From: an uncultured Thermoproteaceae archaeon
GTDB lineage: Archaea; Thermoproteota; Thermoprotei; Thermoproteales; Thermocladiaceae
Assembly (NCBI GenBank): GCA_964575955.1
Contig: CAZNTG010000002.1
Span: forward strand, 1-60,694
Direction: 5' to 3'
DNA length: 60,694 nucleotides
In this document: positions 19,811 through 30,114 of the stretch, in pieces
Layout: every line of letters starts with the position of its first letter
How positions within the stretch are numbered: the first letter of the stretch is position 1
Program-made: the position numbers and the translations under genes
The notes under the pieces: generated by a model
The model's input: the letters and a program-made list of their open reading frames with translations, nothing else
Databases searched by the model: none
What the model was told of the DNA's origin: nothing

Positions 19811-20353
19811 ATGGCATCACAACCCTGGTTATATGGTTTTGGATTTGGAATTAGACAAGCACAGGTAGTAACACCAGAACATGCTGCTAGAATAATTGCA
19901 CAAGCACAAAATCCATTAATGATTATTGGAAGTGAGTGTGAGATAAGACTTCCAAGTGGTATGAGAATTATAGATTATGCTATTGAAATTGCAAAAATTA
20001 AGAATATTCCAATCATAGTTACGACAGGAATCATTAAGGAAGTTAGAGAAGTTTATGAAAATTGTAGACATATGTTTCTTATGGAGATATTTAGAAAGTT
20101 GATAAATCCAAATTGGAATTTAAATGGTAAACCTCACGATCTTGCAATATTTATTGGACATATATACTACATGATTTCTCACTTATTAACAGCTACGAGA
20201 CATTTTGCAAAACATTTGAAAACACTATCCCTAGATAGGTATTATCAACCGAATGTGAACTTCTCACTACAAAACCAACCTCTACTAAATGTATATGAGA
20301 TAACTTTAAAGAAGATAGTTAATACACTTAGAGGACTCGTTGGTACACAGTGA
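19811..20353 (+). CDS. cdhB: CODH/ACS complex epsilon subunit
   Basis: NPLMIIG, DLAIFIG..YY, LKTLSLDRYYQPNVNFS; directly after cdhA with GGTGA RBS. Confidence 0.9.
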   Translation: MASQPWLYGFGFGIRQAQVVTPEHAARIIAQAQNPLMIIGSECEIRLPSGMRIIDYAIEIAKIKNIPIIVTTGIIKEVREVYENCRHMFLMEIFRKLINPNWNLNGKPHDLAIFIGHIYYMISHLLTATRHFAKHLKTLSLDRYYQPNVNFSLQNQPLLNVYEITLKKIVNTLRGLVGTQ

Positions 20354-20398
20354 TGAGGGACATCCTTGCTGATTATTGATGAGGGCCTTAACAACTGA
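20350..20398 (+). ncRNA. C/D-box guide sRNA
   Basis: GTGATGA (overlaps the cdhB stop), 12-nt guide, CTGA, TTGATGA, 12-nt guide, CTGA: canonical layout. Confidence 0.85.
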
Positions 20399-20411
20399 TA
20401 CTACTCTTTTA

Positions 20412-21056
20412 CTACTCTTTCAATATTCCTCTCTCTTTCAATATCTTTACTAGATTTTCAACAATAACGTCTGGTGGTGGTGTTGAGTCTAGATCAACTA
20501 GTAGACCTTTCTGCTTGTAATACTCTATTATTGGTCTAGTCTCTTCTCTATATACTTCAAGTCTCTTTCTAATTACTTCAGGTTTATCATCCTCTCTCTG
20601 ATATAGTTCACCACCACATTCGCATCTATCAGGTTGTGGTGGTGGCATGAATTTTATATGCCAAATCTTTCCACACTTTTTACATATTCTTCTACCACTA
20701 AGTCTCTCTATAATTACCTCATCTGGACATACGAAGTTTACTGCTAAGTCAGGTTTTGCAAACTTATCTAGCTCTTCTGCCTGTTTTACAGTTCTTGGAA
20801 ATCCATCAAGTATCCAACCTTTCTGACAATCAGGTTGTGATAATCTTCTTCTAACAACCTCTATAACAATCTCATCAGGTACTAGAAGTCCCTTCTCAAC
20901 ATACTCCTTAATCTTCTTTCCTAAATCAGTCTCTTTTCTAATCTCTTCTCGAAATATATCTCCTGTAGATATGTGAGGTATTCCAAATCTCTGTGATATT
21001 CTACTAGCTATAGTTCCCTTACCTGCACCGGGTGGACCTATGAATACTAGCTTCAT
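20412..21056 (-). CDS. adk: Adenylate kinase (long-LID, Zn-binding type)
   Basis: GPPGAGKGT, HISTGDIFR, LDGFPRT, CKKC...CEC lid, QREDD. Confidence 0.96.
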   Translation of the reverse strand: MKLVFIGPPGAGKGTIASRISQRFGIPHISTGDIFREEIRKETDLGKKIKEYVEKGLLVPDEIVIEVVRRRLSQPDCQKGWILDGFPRTVKQAEELDKFAKPDLAVNFVCPDEVIIERLSGRRICKKCGKIWHIKFMPPPQPDRCECGGELYQREDDKPEVIRKRLEVYREETRPIIEYYKQKGLLVDLDSTPPPDVIVENLVKILKERGILKE

Positions 21057-21152
21057 TACTAGTACTACTCTTAGTAGGAAATTTATCTAATACCACAAAT
21101 ATCTACACTATCCAAACCTCAGATTTATATTTCAGGAATTTCTCTAAACTCT

Positions 21153-21578
21153 GTGAGTAAGGAACGTTCAATACTTGTAGCATATGACGGTTCTGAGATA
21201 GCTAAAAAAGCTGTTTTTAAAGCTATAGAACTTGCAAAAGCACTAAATGCAAAACTATACATACTATACGTAGTTAATGTACCTCCCGAAGTTAGAGCAT
21301 TTCTAACAGCAGGAACAATACTAAACGAAGCACTTAAGAGTGGTATGAAAATTTTAGAACAATTAAAATCAGAATTAGATAAAGAAAATGTAAAATACGA
21401 CCTAGTAGTTGAGATTGGAGATCCAGGAGAGAAGATTGTAGAATTTGCAGATAAGATTGATGCTGATATGATAGTTATGGGTCATAGAGGACTTAGTGGA
21501 ATTAGAAAACTACTAGTTGGATCTGTATGTGATAAAGTTATTAGATGTTCAACAAGACCAGTACTAGTAGTAAAGTAA
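21153..21578 (+). CDS. Universal stress protein
   Basis: ILVAYDGS, IVMGHRGLSG...LVGSV, PVLVV. Confidence 0.93.
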   Translation: MSKERSILVAYDGSEIAKKAVFKAIELAKALNAKLYILYVVNVPPEVRAFLTAGTILNEALKSGMKILEQLKSELDKENVKYDLVVEIGDPGEKIVEFADKIDADMIVMGHRGLSGIRKLLVGSVCDKVIRCSTRPVLVVK

Positions 21579-22531
21579 GACTTTATGAAGGTTGTCTAGT
21601 AAAGATTAGAGGAAGAGAAGAGATATTCTATATAAAGGGAATATTTGAAGAAGATGGAAAGTATATAGCATTACCAAGATATATACCACACCCTGAAGGT
21701 AATAGAGTTGATAATAAGGGTAGAAGATTCAAAGTATTGAAAACATATGAAGAACAGATAGAGTATGTATATAGTAAAGTTAGAGAAATTTTAAGATATT
21801 CAAAAATATTTAAAATGAAAATACCAATGATAGATGAAGAATATATAGAGGAAGTATATTACCCAACTGAGAAAACTAGAGAAATATTAAAAAATCAAGA
21901 ATATGAAATCGATAAGGTAATTGTAAAAATAGTTAAAGAATTACAAAAAGATGTACCAATAGAATATATAGGTATATGTGGTTCAAGATTAGCAAATCTT
22001 ACAGGACCTGAACAAGATATCGATATTGTAGTAGTAGATATGAGATATATACAACAGATATTTGAAAGATTGAGAAAATTAAAAACATGTGAGGACTATG
22101 TAATAGAAAGATTGTGTAATTACCATAAAGGATCTCTCAGAATACCATATACAATACTTTACAAGTTATTACGTAGAAGAATACTTGAAAATTCTATAGA
22201 CGGTTACCAATATTTCATAAGGATATTACCAATGATAGATATGAAGCCAATACTGAAATATCATAATGTTGAGAAAATTTGTAGATTATATACACATGTT
22301 AAAATATATGATGAATCTAAACTATCATTTACAAGTCCCTGTATATATTTTGTAGAATCTCCAATTGGAAATATACCACTAATATCTGATAGAGGTATAT
22401 TTTCAGAAACCTTACTATTACTACAAAACTTTAAGGTTAGTTGTGTCTTGGAGTGTGGTATTTTAGAAATATTTAATAATACTTTCGATAAGTGGTTTTA
22501 TCTTGATTCTAAATCATTTATAAGTTTTTGA
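21545..22531 (+). CDS. Nucleotidyltransferase-domain protein (COG1665-like)
   Basis: PRYIPHPEGNR and GICGS...DIDIVV pol-beta NTase motif; start uncertain. Confidence 0.7.
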   Translation: MFNKTSTSSKVRLYEGCLVKIRGREEIFYIKGIFEEDGKYIALPRYIPHPEGNRVDNKGRRFKVLKTYEEQIEYVYSKVREILRYSKIFKMKIPMIDEEYIEEVYYPTEKTREILKNQEYEIDKVIVKIVKELQKDVPIEYIGICGSRLANLTGPEQDIDIVVVDMRYIQQIFERLRKLKTCEDYVIERLCNYHKGSLRIPYTILYKLLRRRILENSIDGYQYFIRILPMIDMKPILKYHNVEKICRLYTHVKIYDESKLSFTSPCIYFVESPIGNIPLISDRGIFSETLLLLQNFKVSCVLECGILEIFNNTFDKWFYLDSKSFISF

Positions 22532-23172
22532 AGTTTTGGCTCTCTTTCTGATAGATGTTTACATATTCTTCTTACATATTCTTTAAATTCTTCACATATA
22601 TCAGTTTTACAATTCTTATATATCAATTCTAGACTATATTTTAGTAGTTTTAAATATCTTCTATATATCTTATACTCAGTATTTGCTATTTTTGTTAAGT
22701 ATACTGCAATATCTATCATATGGTTATATATTCTAGTTAATGGTTCTATTATTAGAAATCTACTAAATGCATCAATATACTCTATCTTCAAATCTACTTC
22801 TATCAAGTTTTTCTTAATATTCTTATTTTCAACTTTAGCTTCAATATATCCCCATATTTCATGTTCAGGTGCTATTCTTGGTGCATTTACTTTATATGCA
22901 TTTACATATCTTATATTTTCATACTCTTCTCTTAATATATCTTTGAATGCTGTTACTATGAATAGCGTTGGATTATATGTTAAGTTTATAACTATGTCAG
23001 GATTTTTATTTTGAAATACTTTAAATGTTCTAGATCCTTCATATATTCTAATCTTGACTTTATCTCTACCTTTTAATTTAAAACCTAGAGGTACTGCATG
23101 TGGAGAATCTTCTAGATAATATGTAATTATTCCTTCATAAAGTATGTCTGGAGAAAGTTTGAGAAAATACAC
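22498..23172 (-). CDS. DUF447 family protein (split-barrel)
   Basis: YEGIIT...PHAVPLG, IYEGSRT, INLTYNPTLF pattern. Confidence 0.7.
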   Translation of the reverse strand: MYFLKLSPDILYEGIITYYLEDSPHAVPLGFKLKGRDKVKIRIYEGSRTFKVFQNKNPDIVINLTYNPTLFIVTAFKDILREEYENIRYVNAYKVNAPRIAPEHEIWGYIEAKVENKNIKKNLIEVDLKIEYIDAFSRFLIIEPLTRIYNHMIDIAVYLTKIANTEYKIYRRYLKLLKYSLELIYKNCKTDICEEFKEYVRRICKHLSEREPKLQKLINDLESR

Positions 23173-23204
23173 ATTTTATATATGTGTATGTGTGTCTTAT
23201 TAGT

Positions 23205-24806
23205 TTAGTGTTCTAGGACTCCGAAGTATACTGGTATTCCACCTGCCTCTAACATCTTCTTAAATAGTCCTTCTGCAATCTCTGTACCATACTTGCGTTG
23301 GAATAGTAGTTTCCAACCCTTCAATTCTGGATTGGTGTTTAACATGTCTTGTAGTTTGTATAGTATGTTTCTTGCTTTTGTTAGATATGTCTTATTTCCT
23401 GTAACGTTGTATAGCTTTATGTATACTCCTGCAAGTCCTATAAATCCTAGGATGTAGTAGTTTCTATGTGCAACCTCTCTATTACTAAGTACTGGGTGAT
23501 TAATTAGCCATTCTAGATCTTTTATAGCTTTTGCAAATTCCTCCATTGCTTTTGCCTTATTGTGGAAGTATAGGTCTATTATAGCCATGTAGTAGTATGC
23601 TAGTGCTCTCTCATAGTATGCTGCAGGTACTTCTGCAGGATCACCAGGACACTGTATATGGTCAGTCATCTCTTCAGCGTCCTTCTCTAATGCTTTATAA
23701 GCTGTCTTTAGCATACTCATTCCAAGTTCCTTCTTTCCATGCTTAATATACCATATAGCTTCATAGAACTCTATTAAGCTCTTCAATCTACAAGCTTCAC
23801 CATAGTAGTCTGAGCTTGGTCCAAACTTTGTAATTATTTCATTACAGAACTCTGTCGCAATACCCCACCACTTCTCTACACAACTCCAAGTACCATTCTT
23901 ATAGCATGGCCATCCTATGTAGAATGCTGCTACAGCTCCTGGCATTAATCCTAGATCGCTCTCTTCTTTCCAGTGTGTTATGTAGTATTTTGACCATTTG
24001 AAGGTTTCATACCACTTTCCTAAGTCTATTAATGCCCACATTATGTGTTCTACAGCTGTGTCTATTGGGTATAGTTTAATGGACTTCTCATAATACTCTA
24101 CTGCTAGCCATGGTTCTGCCATTGCTAGATATGTTCTAGCAATATTTTGATACACTGCTGCAAGTCCATACTTTCCAGCATACTTCTCAATAACATCCTT
24201 ATACTTCAAAGCCTTGAATAAGTATGGTAGTACTAGCTTCTCTCTACATGTATAATTATCACAGTAGTCGTAGTATATTGCGCCAAGCTGTGCATAGCAT
24301 AGTGGTGCTATATTTGGAAACTTCTTAATACATAGTTCACAGTAGTATACTGCTTTTTCAAAAGCTTCTTGTGCAAGCTTCATCCAATAAGCACCACTGT
24401 AATCTGGAGCGTATGGTCCTGGAATACATTTTCCACGAGTATACTCTTCATACCATGGTATTGCCTGTGTGAATGATGTATCGTTTGGAAGTTTGTAGTA
24501 GTGATGGAAGAATCCATCATTACCATATGCTACACATAGATCGTAATATGCCATTCCTAAGTTTGGATTAAGTTCTATAGCTTTCGTCAAGTTGTTTACA
24601 GCATCGTGAAACCACATCAATGCTTCTTTAGCATTTCCATTACCAAATGCGTCAAGTTCATTATTTATAGCTGCAACTCCCTGTTCAAAATATTTCATTG
24701 CTAAGCTATATTTTGACCATGTTGATGATAGGTATGCTGCTAGTACTCCAATACCTATTATACATAGTATTCCAATAACTATGCATGCTGCAAGTTTACC
24801 TTTCAT
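23205..24806 (-). CDS. Membrane-anchored or secreted TPR-repeat protein
   Basis: N-terminal signal/TM; repeated TPR motifs (KAIELNPNLGMAYYDL, AVEYYEKSIKLYP, AYYERALAYY); Cys/aromatic-rich. Confidence 0.75.
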   Translation of the reverse strand: MKGKLAACIVIGILCIIGIGVLAAYLSSTWSKYSLAMKYFEQGVAAINNELDAFGNGNAKEALMWFHDAVNNLTKAIELNPNLGMAYYDLCVAYGNDGFFHHYYKLPNDTSFTQAIPWYEEYTRGKCIPGPYAPDYSGAYWMKLAQEAFEKAVYYCELCIKKFPNIAPLCYAQLGAIYYDYCDNYTCREKLVLPYLFKALKYKDVIEKYAGKYGLAAVYQNIARTYLAMAEPWLAVEYYEKSIKLYPIDTAVEHIMWALIDLGKWYETFKWSKYYITHWKEESDLGLMPGAVAAFYIGWPCYKNGTWSCVEKWWGIATEFCNEIITKFGPSSDYYGEACRLKSLIEFYEAIWYIKHGKKELGMSMLKTAYKALEKDAEEMTDHIQCPGDPAEVPAAYYERALAYYYMAIIDLYFHNKAKAMEEFAKAIKDLEWLINHPVLSNREVAHRNYYILGFIGLAGVYIKLYNVTGNKTYLTKARNILYKLQDMLNTNPELKGWKLLFQRKYGTEIAEGLFKKMLEAGGIPVYFGVLEH

Positions 24807-24915
24807 GTGTACCGATTTTTCAGGTATTGAGTTAATATTTATACATTACCTCATGGAATACGTATTACTTATTGTGTAGATATGTAACAACGTTTATGAA
24901 AATAATGCTAAACTT

Positions 24916-25467
24916 TTAAGAAGATTTTAAGAATCGTATTACGAATTTTGAAATACCTCTACCAGCATAGTCACCTGCAAGTCCTGATAGGAATGCTAGT
25001 ACTAGCATTACTACACATCCTATAGGCGATATGTATCTATGTATAGCTATGTAATATCCTAGCCAGTTTATTCCTACACATACAACATTTGCAACACCAC
25101 CATTAACAAGTTCTGTCAATATTCCTAATGCTATGAAAGATATCAATCCTACAACACTAAACCAAGATACCTTAACAATACCAAACCATGGACTTGCGAT
25201 TAGGCAGAATGATACTATCATCACAGCCGTTATAAGTCCATACCACCTACCTGCAATTCTATAAGCTAGGGATATCCAAAATACATACCAAAAACCTCCA
25301 AGTACTGGTAATATCTTGAATGGTACTTTAAATGGAAATACTGCATCTAGTATAGGTTTAACATCTATGTACATCGTTAACAGGAAGCTTAAATATGCAA
25401 ATACTATACACAAGACAACTTTTAGAGGTTCAGGAATCCTACCAGAAACACTTTCTACAGATTTCAT
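24916..25467 (-). CDS. Small multi-pass membrane protein, ECF S-component-like
   Basis: About 6 TM segments; GGFWYVF...SPWFG...LGILTELV pattern recalls YkoE-type S components; start overlaps the radical SAM gene end. Confidence 0.55.
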   Translation of the reverse strand: MKSVESVSGRIPEPLKVVLCIVFAYLSFLLTMYIDVKPILDAVFPFKVPFKILPVLGGFWYVFWISLAYRIAGRWYGLITAVMIVSFCLIASPWFGIVKVSWFSVVGLISFIALGILTELVNGGVANVVCVGINWLGYYIAIHRYISPIGCVVMLVLAFLSGLAGDYAGRGISKFVIRFLKSS

Positions 25468-26275
25468 ATTTTCTCATCCTCTTAACAAATTCTATATGTC
25501 TATTTAACATTGTTTTAAAATCTGTTCTAGCATCTCCAAGACATGTATCTGGTCTATCATGTAGGAATACACATGGAAATTGTTTGAAATCCCAAGTTAC
25601 GAATATTGTAAACATTACAACTCTACAAGGTGTTGTATGTTTAATAGGTAGGTATACTTTCTTACCACCAATCTCTTTAACCTTCTTAAACAACTCTTTC
25701 TCCTCTCTCTCACTTATATATTCAATATCTGGATCTACATTATATATGTTGAATAGTCTATGAAGAACTATACCATCAACACCAACATCAATACCAAATT
25801 TAACAATTTCAGGAATTTCTTCTAAACTATCTCTAAATATTGTAACATCAAGATACACTACAGGTCCTCTACCTCTTCTCCTCTTCTCCTTAATAACTTC
25901 CTCAATATTTTGTAATACTTTTTCCTTACCTTTTAATGTGTATATTCCAAATGAAAGTTCATCAAGACCACTTTCAAATATTTCATCAAGTTTCTTATCT
26001 ACAAGTATACCATTTGTACATAGACTAGCTTTCTTTCCAAGACTCTTAACATATCTTATAAAGTCGAATATTTGAGGATGTAGTAGTGGTTCTCCCCAAC
26101 CATGTAGACATATCTCATCGAAATGTTGTAGTGGAAGTTTCTTAAATTCTTCAAAATCCATATAGCCTATAGGTCTATTTAAATGTCTTCTCATACATAT
26201 TCTACATGTCATTATACAGTGATTTGTAGTCTCTACCTGAAGTATTGTTGGTCTAATAATTTTTTGAAGAAACAT
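25439..26275 (-). CDS. Radical SAM protein with C-terminal SPASM/twitch-type domain
   Basis: CIMTCRIC (CxxxCxxC), GWGEPLLHP, TNG; C-terminal C-x17-C ... CRKC. Confidence 0.9.
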   Translation of the reverse strand: MFLQKIIRPTILQVETTNHCIMTCRICMRRHLNRPIGYMDFEEFKKLPLQHFDEICLHGWGEPLLHPQIFDFIRYVKSLGKKASLCTNGILVDKKLDEIFESGLDELSFGIYTLKGKEKVLQNIEEVIKEKRRRGRGPVVYLDVTIFRDSLEEIPEIVKFGIDVGVDGIVLHRLFNIYNVDPDIEYISEREEKELFKKVKEIGGKKVYLPIKHTTPCRVVMFTIFVTWDFKQFPCVFLHDRPDTCLGDARTDFKTMLNRHIEFVKRMRKYEICRKCFW

Positions 26276-26323
26276 TGAGAAATCCCTGATTTAAGTCTGT
26301 GATGTGTATATTCTATATTTTAA

Positions 26324-26536
26324 CTATCTCACAAAGAGCTTAGCTATAGCTGTCTTTATAGCCATGGATATTCTTGGCGTTACTGTCTTAATCATGTTTA
26401 GTAGTGTTGATCTAAATCCAAGTACTAGTGCTGCAACAACTCCAAATGCTCCAAGTGTTTGACTTAGATACCATGCCTGCAGTGTACTTGCTGTTAACAC
26501 TACATGTAGTGTTGTAACTGACACTGGAGCACACAT
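26324..26536 (-). CDS. Small membrane peptide with MCAPVSVT N-terminus
   Basis: 70 aa; hydrophobic core then basic tail; immediately upstream of and co-oriented with the radical SAM gene; paralogous N-terminus in the divergent ORF. Confidence 0.65.
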   Translation of the reverse strand: MCAPVSVTTLHVVLTASTLQAWYLSQTLGAFGVVAALVLGFRSTLLNMIKTVTPRISMAIKTAIAKLFVR

Positions 26537-26676
26537 AGCTATCGACTTAGAACTATGTTAGCTGATATAAAAACTTTCCTAAATATAGAAATGTTAAGTA
26601 TTACTCAGGGTAAAATCTTTACGTAATAAGGAAGATAGAAATCCTTATTAATTAGTCAGGGTTAGACTAGGACAGT

Positions 26677-26847
26677 ATGTGTACGCCAGTATATGTCACA
26701 GTTAAGACAGCAGCATCAGCAGTACCAGTAGTACACTATATAGCAGGAATAATACTACTAGCAATAGGAGCAGCAGCAAGCTTCTTCGCAGCTTTCAGAT
26801 TAAAAAGACATATATCAGCAGTAAAGACACAAGCAGTAAAATCATAA
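26677..26847 (+). CDS. Small membrane peptide with MCTPVYVT N-terminus (not in ORF track)
   Basis: Hand translation MCTPVYVTVKTAASAVPVVHYIAGIILLAIGAAASFFAAFRLKRHISAVKTQAVKS (56 aa); strong A bias at third codon positions; TTATTAA upstream and T-rich tract downstream. Confidence 0.7.
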   Translation: MCTPVYVTVKTAASAVPVVHYIAGIILLAIGAAASFFAAFRLKRHISAVKTQAVKS

Positions 26848-27017
26848 CAGGACAAGACTAAAATAAACACCCCATAGATCAGCATAAAATAACACTTTTT
26901 CTTTTCTTTTCTCAACATCTCTAATGAAGATATTACACCCATCTAAATTCTACGCATTTCAACTTTCTAAATCTTCCCTAACCTAAGTGGGAGGTTGGTA
27001 GGCAGATTAATTATGTT

Positions 27018-27107
27018 TGGCGCCGGGGGTGGGATTTGAACCCACGCCCCCTGTACGGGGACGGGATCTCAAGTCCCGCGCCTTGGGCCTGGCTCGGCCA
27101 CCCCGGC
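27018..27107 (-). tRNA. tRNA-Ser(UGA)
   Basis: Full cloverleaf: CGGGA CT TGA GA TCCCG, long variable arm, encoded CCA. Confidence 0.97.
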
Positions 27108-27146
27108 TCTAGTCGTGTAGAGGTACTTTGTTGGTTGTTTTAAATC

Positions 27147-27305
27147 TTACTTTGCTCTATACTTCTTTGGTCTTAAATTCTTACTTTTACATCTTCTACA
27201 TTTTTCAGCTCTTGGCGGATTTCTTGCTCCACATTTTCTACATATTAAGTAGTTGAATCTGTGTTCTAGCGCTATTCTAAGCTTCTCTGGGTCTGTTATT
27301 GGCAT
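27147..27305 (-). CDS. rpl40e: 50S ribosomal protein L40e (not in ORF track)
   Basis: Hand translation [52 protein letters not shown]; [10 protein letters not shown]...CRRC...LRPKK signature. Confidence 0.95.
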
Positions 27306-27396
27306 ACTTAGCTACATGTATTAATGCTAGTTTTAAGTGTTTTTCTTTTTAACAACATGAGGAAATTGTCTTAATATCTTCACATGTCTGCATATT

Positions 27397-28137
27397 GTGC
27401 AGGCTAGATCTAGACTTAGTAGAGCATCTCTACAGTTTGAAGCTGTTGAACTTCTCAATATTGCACGTAGTCTTCTCAAACTTTCATATAGAGAGCTTAG
27501 TGAAATTACAGGTTTTCAAGAGAGTGTATTGTGTAGATATGCTAATGGTGATCTACTACCGTCACCAGAGACAGCTCTTCAAATAATTTCTAAATTAGAA
27601 CCAATACTATCTTTAGAAAATGTGTTAAAGAGACTTATAAAAATATATGAAAATTATGTAGATTTTGGAAAGATAGTTACAAATAGTGACATACTTAAAC
27701 TATATGCAAGAAGAGTACGTTCACTATTTCAAGAATATAACATAACTAAAATCTTAACAGCAGCAACAGACGGTGTACCACTTGCAGTATCTGCAGCATT
27801 AATGTTAAATGCTGATTTAGCAGTTGCAAAACAGTATAGAGATGTATTTGAAGATGACTTCTATGAAGCAACATATATAATGGAAAGTCCACCAAGAAAA
27901 GTTACACTATACGTCCCAAAGTCATTATTAAGTAAGAATGATAGAGTACTAATTGTTGATGACATAGTCAGGACAGGTAGAACAATTGGAGCATTAATAG
28001 ACATATGTAGACAAGCTGAAGCACAGATAGTTGGCATATCTATACTAATAGCATTTGGAACATCATGGCTAAGAAAGATATCTGATATTAATGCAAAAAT
28101 AGATGTTGTACTCTACTTACAAAACTATGCCATATAA
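27397..28137 (+). CDS. HTH plus phosphoribosyltransferase-domain protein (PurR/Apt-like)
   Basis: SYRELSEITG...LCRYANG..LPS HTH; VLIVDDIVRTGRT PRPP-binding motif. Confidence 0.85.
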   Translation: MQARSRLSRASLQFEAVELLNIARSLLKLSYRELSEITGFQESVLCRYANGDLLPSPETALQIISKLEPILSLENVLKRLIKIYENYVDFGKIVTNSDILKLYARRVRSLFQEYNITKILTAATDGVPLAVSAALMLNADLAVAKQYRDVFEDDFYEATYIMESPPRKVTLYVPKSLLSKNDRVLIVDDIVRTGRTIGALIDICRQAEAQIVGISILIAFGTSWLRKISDINAKIDVVLYLQNYAI

Positions 28138-29485
28138 TCTAACGATAGATATAATATTAATATTACTATCAATCTCAACATTTATAACACCAATATATCA
28201 AACGTATCTATACAATATAGGTAGAAAATTTAGAAATATATCAAACACATACGAAGATAAGTACATAATACTGCTACCAGTCAAGAAAGAACCAATTGAA
28301 ATAATAATAAACTTCTTCAAAAATAATAGAGAACTAGTTAATAGAAGTATACTAACAATACTGATAGCTGATGAGTATAGTAATGAAGAACTTAACATGA
28401 TAATAAGTAGATTATGCAAATTAAATGTTGAGAATATTCTCATAATACCATCTAGAAAATCTATAAATAAGGCATATGCATTAAACAGAGCATTAGACAT
28501 TATTAAAAATGGAGATTTCACAATAGTTGTATTTGATATAGATTCAATAATAGAATGTAAAATTCCGAAGTGTAGATCTGTAATAAGTCCTAGATGGGAA
28601 GGTTATAAAAATATAAAATCACTACTAGGTACAGGTCTTGAAGTTGGTTATAGAATATTTATGAAAATTATAGATGGTCTATACATCATAACTAGATGGA
28701 GACCAACACTTGGTTCAGGATTAGCGACATCTATAGAAGTTTTAAAAAGATTGAAATATTTTAATGAAAATGTAATACTTGAAGATGTTGATTATAGTAT
28801 TAGAAGTAGTATAGATAATATACCCATAGACTCATACAATAACTATGTAGTTAAAGTTCTTGTTCCAGCCACATACAACACACTCTTAAAGCAACAAGCT
28901 AGATGGGCATATGGTTCTGGAGAGTTAATTAGAAAGTATTTCAAATATATTATTAAGAGACCTATGATACTTCTATACTTTTATCAATACATGTCCTATC
29001 CATCTCAACTACTGTTAGCCATATTTCTATATATTGTAAATATTTTAAACATGTATATACCAATAGTACTTCAATATATGATAGTTATATTAATGATATA
29101 TACAGCATTAATATATTCAATATTTTGTATATATGAGATTGGTATTAAAGACTTTAAGGTTGTTAAAGATAGTTTAATAGCAATTAATAGAGTTAATATG
29201 GCTTATGCAGTTATGTCTCCAAGAATTTTCATATCATTCATCTTAGGAGTTTTAGGTAAGCCTTATAGATGGATTCCAACACCAAAAATTGAGAAAATAC
29301 CACCTCTACTTGTTAGAGTTAGATTGTACATAATTGAGATATTTATAAGTATTCTACTAATTGTGTTATTTTTACTATGTTTATTGTTAGGAAATATATT
29401 TCAAATATATGTTATAGATCCTGTAGCATTTACAATAACCTATGTATGGGGTACTTTTAGAGTTATTCAACGTGAGCTTACTTAG
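28127..29485 (+). CDS. Family 2 processive-type membrane glycosyltransferase
   Basis: KAYALN, FDID, LED, QQARW motifs and C-terminal TM helices; start 28103 or 28127. Confidence 0.85.
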   Translation: MPYNLTIDIILILLSISTFITPIYQTYLYNIGRKFRNISNTYEDKYIILLPVKKEPIEIIINFFKNNRELVNRSILTILIADEYSNEELNMIISRLCKLNVENILIIPSRKSINKAYALNRALDIIKNGDFTIVVFDIDSIIECKIPKCRSVISPRWEGYKNIKSLLGTGLEVGYRIFMKIIDGLYIITRWRPTLGSGLATSIEVLKRLKYFNENVILEDVDYSIRSSIDNIPIDSYNNYVVKVLVPATYNTLLKQQARWAYGSGELIRKYFKYIIKRPMILLYFYQYMSYPSQLLLAIFLYIVNILNMYIPIVLQYMIVILMIYTALIYSIFCIYEIGIKDFKVVKDSLIAINRVNMAYAVMSPRIFISFILGVLGKPYRWIPTPKIEKIPPLLVRVRLYIIEIFISILLIVLFLLCLLLGNIFQIYVIDPVAFTITYVWGTFRVIQRELT

Positions 29486-30114
29486 AGGTAGTCTAGTATG
29501 GATTTTCTCTTAATGTCAATTCTACCTGTTCTATATATTTCAACAATTTTCTTAATATCTTCATATATGTAATTTCTCAATTTTGGATTGTATAATGCTG
29601 CTGCTGGATGATATGTTGGTAGTATTGTTATATCTATTTCATTAAACATCTTTACGTTAAATATTCTACCTCTAATTTTAGATATTTGTGATACTTCTCT
29701 TTCTTTAAATCCACATAATTTTAAAATTTCTCTAGCACTATGCCTACCTAGGCATATTATTATTTTTGGTCTTATAATTCTAATCTGCCTTATTAGATAT
29801 GGTAGACAGGATCTAATTTCTTCATCTGTAGGATCTCTATTTTCTGGTGGTCTACATTTAACAACATTTGTAATATATACATCACTTCTAGATATTCCAA
29901 TTTCACTTAAAATTTTTGTCAATAAATTACCTGCTGGTCCTACAAATGGTCTACCTTGTTCATCTTCTTTCTCTCCGGGAGCTTCACCGATAATCATTAT
30001 ATCAGCATCAATCTTACCTTCACCAGGTACTGGTCTCTTCCTATACTTGTGTAGGGGACATTTTGTACATGTTAATATTTCATGTACTAGTTGCTCATAC
30101 TCTAGTTGATTCAT
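29482..30114 (-). CDS. udg: Uracil-DNA glycosylase family 4
   Basis: CTKCPLH, GEAPG, PFVGPAG, NVVKCRPPENRDP, TYHPAA. Confidence 0.95.
   Translation of the reverse strand: MNQLEYEQLVHEILTCTKCPLHKYRKRPVPGEGKIDADIMIIGEAPGEKEDEQGRPFVGPAGNLLTKILSEIGISRSDVYITNVVKCRPPENRDPTDEEIRSCLPYLIRQIRIIRPKIIICLGRHSAREILKLCGFKEREVSQISKIRGRIFNVKMFNEIDITILPTYHPAAALYNPKLRNYIYEDIKKIVEIYRTGRIDIKRKSILDYL

Follow-up and report, generated by a model that had tools for sequence, protein, structure and literature searches.

We describe a compact gene unit in which two very small membrane peptides, each beginning with Met-Cys, accompany a radical S-adenosylmethionine (rSAM) enzyme, a membrane protein with the fold of an energy-coupling factor (ECF) S component, and a membrane-anchored tetratricopeptide-repeat (TPR) protein. 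The unit lies at positions 23205-26847 of a 60,694-nucleotide stretch of contig CAZNTG010000002.1 (assembly GCA_964575955.1), from an uncultured Thermoproteaceae archaeon; we refer to this whole stretch as the window. The peptide, rSAM, S-component-like and membrane-anchored TPR genes recur together as a conserved unit across phyla, in many anaerobic archaea and bacteria, and we regard the unit as a probable maturation system, acting on a peptide or protein through its rSAM enzyme, whose substrate is unusual in being a membrane-tethered N-terminus and whose role would lie in metal acquisition. Our reading as a whole, namely that membrane-tethered peptides are modified by the rSAM enzyme at their Cys2 motif and take part in acquiring metal outside the cytoplasm, is tentative and falls slightly short of an even call. 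Its parts differ in strength: the peptides are rather likely to be the substrate of the enzyme, whereas a role in metal acquisition is evenly balanced. We infer that the peptides are modified, and Cys2 is most likely the target of, or a participant in, that modification. The features of the locus are as follows:

23205-24806, minus strand: gene for the TPR protein (533 aa)
24916-25467, minus strand: gene for the S-component-fold membrane protein (183 aa, polytopic, hydrophobic)
25439-26275, minus strand: gene for the rSAM enzyme (278 aa)
26324-26536, minus strand: pepA, the first gene of the operon, for a 70-aa single-pass membrane peptide (MCAPVSVTT...)
26624-26650, no strand: perfect palindrome TAATAAGGA-N9-TCCTTATTA, in the divergent promoter region of pepA and pepB
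26677-26847, plus strand: pepB, divergent from the operon, for a 56-aa single-pass membrane peptide (MCTPVYVTVK...)
27018-27107, minus strand: tRNA-Ser(tga), its 3' end 170 nt from the cluster

The operon on the minus strand runs in the order pepA, rSAM gene, membrane-protein gene, TPR gene: pepA is placed 48 nt upstream of the rSAM start, and the rSAM and membrane-protein genes share exactly 29 nt (25439-25467), just as an earlier, sequence-only reading of this DNA had stated. A spacer of 140 nt separates pepA from the divergent pepB. Since pepA and pepB are both present, the unit consists of five genes, and not of the four co-oriented genes headed by a Cys-containing peptide that the sequence-only reading had described; position 26847 is the pepB stop, and hence that reading had seen pepB, misplaced its strand, and missed the co-oriented pepA.

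The grouping of these genes extends well beyond one genome. We collected 100 loci, searched their six-frame open reading frames (ORFs) with profiles, and derived a quick maximum-likelihood tree from 83 near-full-length enzyme rows (88 before identical sequences were removed; the window copy, L001, and enzyme matches covering fewer than 230 model positions were also dropped). Sixty of these rows form an rSAM clade that carries the module (Shimodaira-Hasegawa-like approximate likelihood ratio test, 91), and 23 rows are outgroup. At loci with at least 300 nt of upstream DNA, 50 of 53 in-clade cases have a same-strand M-C-x-P peptide encoded no more than 400 nt upstream of the enzyme, versus 0 of 20 in the outgroup; at loci with at least 600 nt of downstream DNA, the family of the 183-aa membrane protein is found in 29 of 40 versus 0 of 18. 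Counted over all rows, short flanks included, the TPR family occurs in 25 of the 60 in-clade rows, a family of FmdE-domain proteins (see below) in 17, and TonB receptors in 8, versus none of the three in the outgroup. The neighbourhood is thus conserved across phyla, the opposite of the unconserved neighbourhood that the sequence-only reading had named as counting against its proposal.

Close relatives of the enzyme at 51-64% identity come from metagenome-assembled genomes (MAGs) labelled Archaeoglobaceae, Archaeoglobi, Baldrarchaeota and Micrarchaeota; relatives of 41-55% identity carry the source names Methanocaldococcus, Methanothermococcus, Nanoarchaeota and Methanophagales. The module had been taken to be archaeal, and many archaea do carry it, but bacteria carry it as well, among them MAGs labelled Desulfobacterium, Desulfobacterales, Thermodesulfobacteriota, Spirochaetales and Ca. 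Desulfofervidus auxilii. Within this broad range its occurrence is patchy. Among 41 relatives of the present genome the 183-aa protein is confined to the same genus (this genome and five of six others; 0 of 34 elsewhere), and, of the genomes sampled, the membrane-protein profile finds members in 3 of 401 from the window's phylum versus 23 of 301 from the Archaeoglobaceae-containing phylum, a distribution that would fit acquisition by transfer. The module as a family is absent from Pfam, NCBIfam and the PDB, the N-terminal strings of the peptides had no match in the literature, and we found no paper that describes the module in its main text, bearing in mind that supplementary gene tables could name these genes; the searched text of PMC11672702 and PMC11247825 contains no mention of FmdE or radical SAM. 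The earlier description of the cluster as undescribed therefore stands, in that no curated family or paper was found that describes it.

Both pepA and pepB are real genes rather than ORFs that arose by chance. When six same-genus loci are compared, the third codon positions of pepA show an excess of substitutions (e.g., 13/11/32 and 2/2/18) and its pN/pS is 0.06-0.59, which indicates purifying selection; pepB is conserved in six same-genus loci and also in the Archaeoglobaceae loci L015, L019 and L023. They are the only two such Met-Cys ORFs in the 1.52-Mb genome. A 68-aa Cys-containing ORF runs antisense to pepB (26736-26942, minus strand); relatives keep only the part of it that overlaps pepB, and so it is probably a shadow and not a gene.

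The start of these peptides is their most constant feature. We searched a profile of 29 pepA-type sequences against 1.84 billion representative proteins (E <= 0.001) and obtained 54 matches, of which 53 are 37-75 aa in length and 50 start exactly with M-C-x-P; of the remainder, two show the motif preceded by one to five additional residues, another begins MCTT, and the last (160 aa) is unrelated. Gene callers elsewhere had chosen the same Met-Cys start in 50 of the 54 matches, and none of the 54 in that library is fused to another domain. A direct BLASTP comparison of pepA with pepB gave no alignment; iterated profile searches from the two nevertheless converge (85 and 74 matches, union 93), and 91 of these 93 peptides carry [M/V]-C-x-P, the other two being cut by contig ends. 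Position 2 is Cys in all 80 unique peptides, and in 51 of them it is the sole Cys. Their first eight positions read M, C, A/V/T, P, V/I, S/Y/A/T, V, T/S, which we write as M-C-x-P-(V/I)-x-V-(T/S); one subgroup has an extra G-C-T-G-x-C stretch. Two loci of other Thermoproteota (L103:441-602 and L104:458-619) encode peptides that start MCTT(IAAN) and MCTA(IATN), with no Pro4; in view of these starts, it is Cys2 that is constant and Pro4 that is nearly so. Both of these loci hold a trio of peptide, enzyme and membrane-protein genes together with a convergent FmdE gene, and their enzymes end in CSRCII and CSRCTL, not in the CxxCxW that closes the window enzyme.

The peptides share one layout: about 19 mostly uncharged residues, a single hydrophobic helix, and a basic tail. 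Lys and Arg are more numerous after the helix than before it in 79 of 79 peptides (mean 4.1 versus 0.4). By the positive-inside rule, a basic flank stays in the cytoplasm; the basic C-terminal flank therefore predicts that the N-terminus faces outward. Family members (37-75 aa) are accordingly predicted to be single-pass membrane proteins in an N-out orientation.

The 278-aa enzyme contains a Radical_SAM domain (PF04055; 52.1 bits versus a cut-off of 29.5, residues 14-160). The SPASM model PF13186 aligns to residues 217-276 at 18 bits, under its cut-off of 21.5, a threshold that some bacterial members of the family and some of the type found in anaerobic methanotrophic archaea (ANME) do pass. 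Among 29 diverse members, the invariant Cys residues are C20, C24 and C27 (CxxxCxxC), and C217, C235, C273 and C276; with only four further invariant Cys, the SPASM set for two auxiliary clusters is incomplete. These four C-terminal Cys, taken with fold matches to SkfB and BtrN, would fit a twitch type of domain, probably with one auxiliary cluster. As the rSAM core begins near residue 12, there is no room for a RiPP recognition element (RRE; RiPP, a peptide made by ribosomes and modified after translation), and no RRE or PqqD-like domain was found by Pfam on the enzyme or among recurrent neighbours in 70 loci.

With respect to known structures, the sequence profile of the enzyme reaches only distant ones: BlsE, NifB, Tes, BtrN, MoaA, SkfB and YydG. 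An AlphaFold2 model (mean predicted local distance difference test, pLDDT, 91.2) has as its nearest solved folds in Foldseek, ranked by the TM-score normalized to the query (TMq), SuiB (0.76), SkfB (0.76), CteB (0.70), viperin (0.70) and anSME (0.69), all at identities of 12-18%; the best Foldseek E-value is to BlsE (4.4e-14). We also docked the enzyme, as an alignment, with the part of the pepA alignment that covers residues 1-45, and included S-adenosylmethionine and two 4Fe-4S clusters as riding ligands. The pair scored 0.46 (runs 0.46, 0.46 and 0.02), the best of three controls 0.04, although alignments and ligands of this kind lie outside the calibration of the method; no fewer than 26% of contacts are common to the runs, the pLDDT of the partner is 37 or higher, and no interface was reported. 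Of 157 solved complexes, 116 attain the mark that we applied, as do 2 of 215 mismatched pairs, but only 18 of the 157 reach it with scores at or below 0.60, where both of the passing mismatches also fall. We take the docking to be a small nudge in favour of pairing between enzyme and peptide.

The 183-aa membrane protein has no Pfam or NCBIfam match at E <= 0.01, its family profile has none among PDB sequences at E <= 10, and PF09819 occurs in none of the 41 relatives. Its AlphaFold2 model (pLDDT 91.6) has seven helices. Foldseek alone gave a best E of 0.035 to an S component (TMq 0.53) and no match at E <= 0.001. In a full structural alignment against 48,161 chains, the top 13 are all ECF S components (Z 12.4 to 8.7): ThiT leads (Z 12.4, rmsd 3.2, 152 residues aligned), and the others include RibU (10.7), a YkoE-type protein (10.6), PanT (10.6), FolT (10.0), a truncated NikM (9.5) and BioY (8.7); CbiM reaches 6.8 and unrelated chains reach 6.1 at most. 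Helical bundles can attain such Z values by arrangement alone; we accept the fold because one family fills this unbroken run over about 150 of the 183 residues, and the earlier designation as S-component-like thus holds at the level of fold. A lead from the ESM Atlas likewise points to S-component clusters (TM about 0.65). Conserved residues of the protein are W64, P93-W94-x-G96, a membrane-embedded E119, G123-G124 and W135. EcfT and EcfA genes are absent from the locus, and one CbiQ/EcfT-like gene is found on another contig of the genome. In two genomes of the Archaeoglobaceae-containing phylum the membrane-protein gene contains in-frame stops (G676:C27:1101-1589, two TGA and one TAG; G537:C5:11642-12169, one TAA), which may reflect decay or assembly errors.

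For the 533-aa protein, the model TPR_1 scores 27.3 bits versus a cut-off of 27.8, and a homologue (L065:2064-3554) matches many TPR models, all below their family-specific cut-offs; a profile search found homologues of 400-590 bits in 33 loci. A basic N-terminus followed by a transmembrane helix is present in 23 of 23 aligned members, for which reason the bulk of the protein is predicted to be extracytoplasmic; R224, H254, R400 and D430 are conserved. Clustering of neighbours brought out one more recurrent partner, a family of FmdE-domain proteins of about 400 aa with a signal peptide (PF02663, 58.7-82.8 bits), in 21 loci. In the present genome the FmdE gene is unlinked (contig C9:100098-101468, 457 aa, PF02663 35.7 bits versus a cut-off of 22.9). 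Its product has signal and anchor segments, with hydrophobic stretches at both the N- and the C-terminus, and the HNHICPG and CKDD motifs of the locus-linked forms. The gene is an orthologue of the module-embedded FmdE genes of other genomes; the N-terminal half of the protein, about 170 aa, matches no family. Among the 41 relatives, the long form of FmdE occurs in this genome and in five of six others of the genus, and shorter, weaker forms occur in three of nine genomes of one other genus.

The connection with metals comes from the genes that adjoin the module in other genomes. TonB receptors are encoded at L043, L044, L054, L063, L065, L067, L070 and L072, and individual loci contain the following:

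L070 (358-8817, a bacterial contig): TonB receptor, TPR, peptide, enzyme, DUF2162, ExbB-like, DUF2149, CobN-like
L063 and L065: TonB receptor, Slp, Peripla_BP_2
L058: FeoA/FeoB and DUF4198
L046: DtxR-type repressor and FeoB
L051: CbiM-CbiQ-ATPase
L053: ZnuABC (ZnuA, ABC-3, ATPase)
L026, L027 and L079: DUF364 ('heavy-metal chelation') / DUF4213
L047: NifX-like gene
L035: MoaC and an aldehyde ferredoxin oxidoreductase (AOR)

The gene set of L070 resembles the Hmu heme-uptake operon of Porphyromonas. Because these neighbouring systems serve different metals, they tie the module to metal handling in general and to no single metal. A stand-alone gene of about 130 aa for a TrmO/TsaA-type S-adenosylmethionine-binding protein stands in or next to the module at two unrelated loci (L047:2958-3350 and L068:1279-1683).

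As for the metal, nickel is a candidate, and so are iron, cobalt, zinc and tungsten/molybdenum. The genome encodes a NikR gene, and the NikR box of delta-proteobacteria is GTGTTAC-N13/14-GTAACAC (PMC545781, in part). Allowing up to two mismatches, we counted 10 such boxes in 72 module loci (327,646 nt), where shuffled sequences average 4.35 and reach 9 at most, and none in 30 other loci (150,794 nt). Two lie just upstream of the peptide gene at L074, one of them with a single mismatch; at L047/L048 a box is found 71 nt upstream of the FmdE-led operon, and at L061 one is placed just past the end of the rSAM gene.

These data lead us to hypothesize the following sequence of events. The RRE-less rSAM enzyme would act in the cytoplasm on mini membrane proteins, one to three in number, at their N-terminal M-C-x-P-(V/I)-x-V-(T/S), and modification at the Cys2 motif would precede passage of the N-terminus across the membrane. 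The peptide would then reside in the membrane with its modified N-terminus of about 20 residues outside and its basic tail inside. There, the tethered tip would work with the membrane-anchored TPR protein and the FmdE-domain protein, which is secreted and anchored; in bacteria a TonB-dependent receptor would be a further partner. The S-component-fold protein would either bind the tip or move its cargo inward. This arrangement would serve, at the cell surface, to capture or hand over a transition metal or a metal cofactor. Two chemistries may be envisaged: a thioether of the kind that SkfB and CteB form, here between Cys2 and a residue close by, or oxidation at Cys2, as performed by anSME. Both are compatible with an enzyme that lacks an RRE and probably has one auxiliary cluster, and with the Cys-x-Pro context. 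An N-terminal Cys or amine is a metal ligand in HypC, Ni-superoxide dismutase and NikM/CbiM, and these precedents make a metal-binding tip plausible. More speculatively, the peptide might be a protein-anchored metallophore, its Met-Cys tip serving as a surface group that binds metal or carries a cofactor, and thereby a new acquisition route in strict anaerobes. We consider this extension doubtful; it would have the cargo pass between the FmdE protein or TonB receptor, the TPR scaffold and the S-component-fold channel, and it would be shared by ANME-1, their Desulfofervidus partners, Methanocaldococcus, Archaeoglobi and vent Thermoproteota.

Several known systems bear comparison. The substrate motif of anSME is C/S-x-P/A-x-R. 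Both anSME/AtsB (PDB: 4k36) and the module enzyme are RRE-less members of the SPASM/twitch group with related folds, and both act, in our proposal, in the cytoplasm on a Cys with a Pro two residues on, in a protein that then becomes extracytoplasmic. On the other hand, identity is 15%, the module enzyme has four auxiliary Cys and not the SPASM set, Arg at +4 is found in 0 of 80 peptides (S 54, Y 10, A 8, T 7, V 1), and the motif is at residue 2 of a membrane peptide of 37-75 aa and not inside a sulfatase. SkfB (PDB: 6efn), CteB (PDB: 5wgg and 5why) and SuiB (PDB: 5v1t), which are among the nearest solved folds, resemble the module further in that a Cys-containing peptide is encoded beside the enzyme. 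They are 380-440 aa long versus 278 aa here, at 14-17% identity. The module enzyme begins directly with the rSAM core, whereas some known maturases, CteB and SuiB among them, have N-terminal peptide-binding domains; moreover, the products of these enzymes are released, whereas the module peptide keeps its membrane anchor and a thioether is here only a candidate. SkfB itself uses a single-cluster twitch domain (PMC6231123, in part).

Among the ECF S components compared (ThiT, 4tkr and 3rlb; RibU, 5kbw; YkoE-type, 5edl; NikM, 4m5c; CbiM, 5x3x; and also PanT, FolT and BioY), the likeness to the 183-aa protein is that of a helical fold over about 150 residues. The module protein differs from them in having no sequence-family match and no EcfT or EcfA at the window locus, and the metal S components match it less well than the leading vitamin transporters do. 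We know of no S component that is coupled to an rSAM enzyme. As metal-active modified peptides, the closest functional parallels to our proposal are bufferins and methanobactins: these too are Cys-based modified ribosomal peptides that act on metals outside the cytoplasm, and methanobactin has a TonB receptor. They differ in that the modifying enzyme of bufferins is a multinuclear non-heme iron-dependent oxidative enzyme (MNIO) and not an rSAM enzyme, and in that they are soluble with a signal or leader, whereas the module peptide bears its motif at the N-terminus and is anchored in the membrane. Bufferins are described as MNIO-modified metal-binding peptides (PMC12452194, in part). An archaeal precedent is the Crp system of Methanococcus voltae, in which the rSAM/SPASM enzyme CrpC modifies Cys in CrpA, the product of a neighbouring gene (PMC13692751). 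CrpC, however, possesses an RRE as well as three clusters, its substrate is large and Cys-rich, and its family and substrate are unrelated to those of the module.

A number of observations weigh against our reading. The enzyme has no RRE. The docking tool's own verdict on its support for the pairing is that it is weak. Pro4 is not universal, as L103 and L104 (MCTTIAAN, MCTAIATN) illustrate, and at L035, L042 and L069, which are in-clade and have enough DNA upstream, no peptide is seen; the counts given above overstate independence, because related genomes are not independent samples. For the 183-aa protein, a match to an S-component sequence family (PF12822, PF09819, PF07155 and similar) is absent, and the protein is nearer to vitamin S components than to NikM (Z 9.5) or CbiM (6.8). 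As to metals, the adjoining systems serve different ones, and the link rests on the neighbours of the module in other genomes, its neighbours in the window being housekeeping genes. The NikR-like sites are only modestly above shuffled sequences, several of them inside coding sequence, and at up to two mismatches the window locus has none, although the consensus is delta-proteobacterial and an archaeal box may differ.

Some of the same observations suit an alternative, which we judge unlikely, that the enzyme acts on a substrate other than a peptide, for instance a lipid, a metal cofactor or a small-molecule metallophore, and that the Met-Cys peptides are unmodified subunits of a membrane transport complex built around the S-component-like protein, akin to CbiN or NikN, in which the free N-terminal Met-Cys is itself a metal ligand. 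An enzyme without an RRE would then be expected, and its best curated matches, TIGR04317 (106.3 bits, E 1.7e-30, model positions 6-272 of 349) and then TIGR04311 (69 bits), are presumed maturases of cofactors or metalloenzymes; BlsE, which has the top Foldseek E-value, is a small-molecule enzyme, the membrane protein has the fold of a small-molecule importer, and at L035, L042 and L069 the enzyme is without a detectable peptide. Ni/Co S components do work with small accessory membrane proteins in ECF systems (PMC545781, in part). Yet the oriented adjacency of peptide and enzyme (50 of 53) is steadier than that of enzyme and transporter (29 of 40): the TonB-type bacterial loci L044, L058, L065, L067 and L070 keep peptide, enzyme and TPR protein without the membrane protein, and as such loci often lack it, the peptide travels with the enzyme and not with the transporter. 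Docking of peptide and enzyme also passed its controls, if weakly. The sequence-only reading had allowed that the enzyme could instead be a cofactor maturase, and a non-peptide substrate keeps its place as a rival; what falls away from that suggestion is the tungsten-cofactor family. In that narrower form the enzyme would be an AOR tungsten maturase ('cmo' type, TIGR04317) and the small ORFs incidental, which is highly improbable. TIGR04317 is the best curated match for the window enzyme and for two bacterial members alike (the latter at 116.8-118.3 bits), AOR and MoaC genes lie near the enzyme at L035, and the genome has three AOR genes, but the scores are far under the cut-off of 380 bits and no AOR gene lies beside the window enzyme in the cluster. 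A separate 351-aa rSAM paralogue scores 250.8 bits over the full TIGR04317 model, still below 380, and is directly beside an AOR gene (contig C6:17955-20596); this paralogue appears to be the true AOR-linked gene of the 'cmo' type in this genome. In addition, the outgroup rSAM clades have no peptides, and the small ORFs are under selection.

It is also very unlikely that the locus is a classical RiPP system, in which the peptide would be modified, cut and released as an antimicrobial or signal and the 183-aa protein would confer immunity or export. The pairing of a peptide with an rSAM gene, the several peptide paralogues per locus, the patchy distribution (3 of 401 versus 23 of 301) and the RiPP maturases among the nearest folds all have such a look. 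A hypervariable core, however, is usual in many released peptides, and here the extreme N-terminus is conserved while the rest drifts, with no sign of such a core; the hydrophobic helix and basic tail are kept in 79 of 79 complete members. No protease, ABC exporter or RRE is found in the window (the lack of RRE and protease had been recognized before) or recurrently in the 70 loci, where a single M24 peptidase occurs, at L034. The adjoining genes belong to uptake and not to conflict systems. The earlier suggestion of an immunity protein is likewise unlikely, given the missing protease and exporter, the retained anchors and the metal-uptake neighbours, and we continue to prefer modification of the peptides at Cys2 in a tethered state.

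Maturation of peptides by rSAM enzymes is well known; action on the extreme N-terminus of a membrane-anchored mini-protein, with S-component-fold, FmdE and TPR partners, is apparently undescribed. Carriers of the module include the methane-oxidising ANME-1 and their sulfate-reducing partner, hyperthermophilic methanogens, and Archaeoglobi, organisms believed to rely strongly on Ni, Fe, Co and W/Mo enzymes in their metabolism. Should the link with metals be true, FmdE-domain proteins, whose function is, to our knowledge, unknown, would gain a concrete role, and anaerobic metal uptake a new component.

Regarding expression of the unit, the palindrome at 26624-26650 is a perfect 9+9 repeat and the only perfect copy in the genome; its core, TAATAA...TTATTA, is kept in six same-genus loci. 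It is a candidate operator and/or paired TATA boxes. With no second copy in the genome, it is not tied to a regulon; by hand count it agrees with the delta-proteobacterial NikR box at only 9 of 14 positions, and it fails the scan at up to two mismatches. The 9-mer GTAATACTT is common to the pepA promoter and the region upstream of the unlinked FmdE gene; it has 59 copies in the genome versus 39 expected, and being so common, was dropped as evidence. Scans for bacterial sigma-70 promoters and for terminators gave results at the level of shuffled sequence and are not applicable to an archaeon.

The cluster is flanked by housekeeping genes (adenylate kinase, universal stress protein (USP), L40e, adenine phosphoribosyltransferase and uracil-DNA glycosylase) and, as the sequence-only reading had also noted, by the 3' end of tRNA-Ser(UGA). 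Its G+C content of 0.32-0.36 is slightly raised relative to the flanks (0.26-0.31). The further idea that it is an islet at the tRNA 3' end is unsupported, because no att-like direct repeat of the tRNA end is present within 20000-27200, and because in a same-genus genome (L013) the same cluster adjoins a 1400-aa gene in place of the tRNA. No integrase is apparent among the ORFs of 21000-29500, a region where the family-library search covered only nine ORFs. On the far side of the TPR gene, the USP gene (21153-21578, plus strand) overlaps by 34 nt the start of a nucleotidyltransferase-like gene (21545-22531, plus strand, 328 aa), which in turn overlaps by 34 nt the end of a convergent DUF447 gene (22498-23172, minus strand); the order USP, nucleotidyltransferase-like, DUF447 is kept in same-genus genomes.

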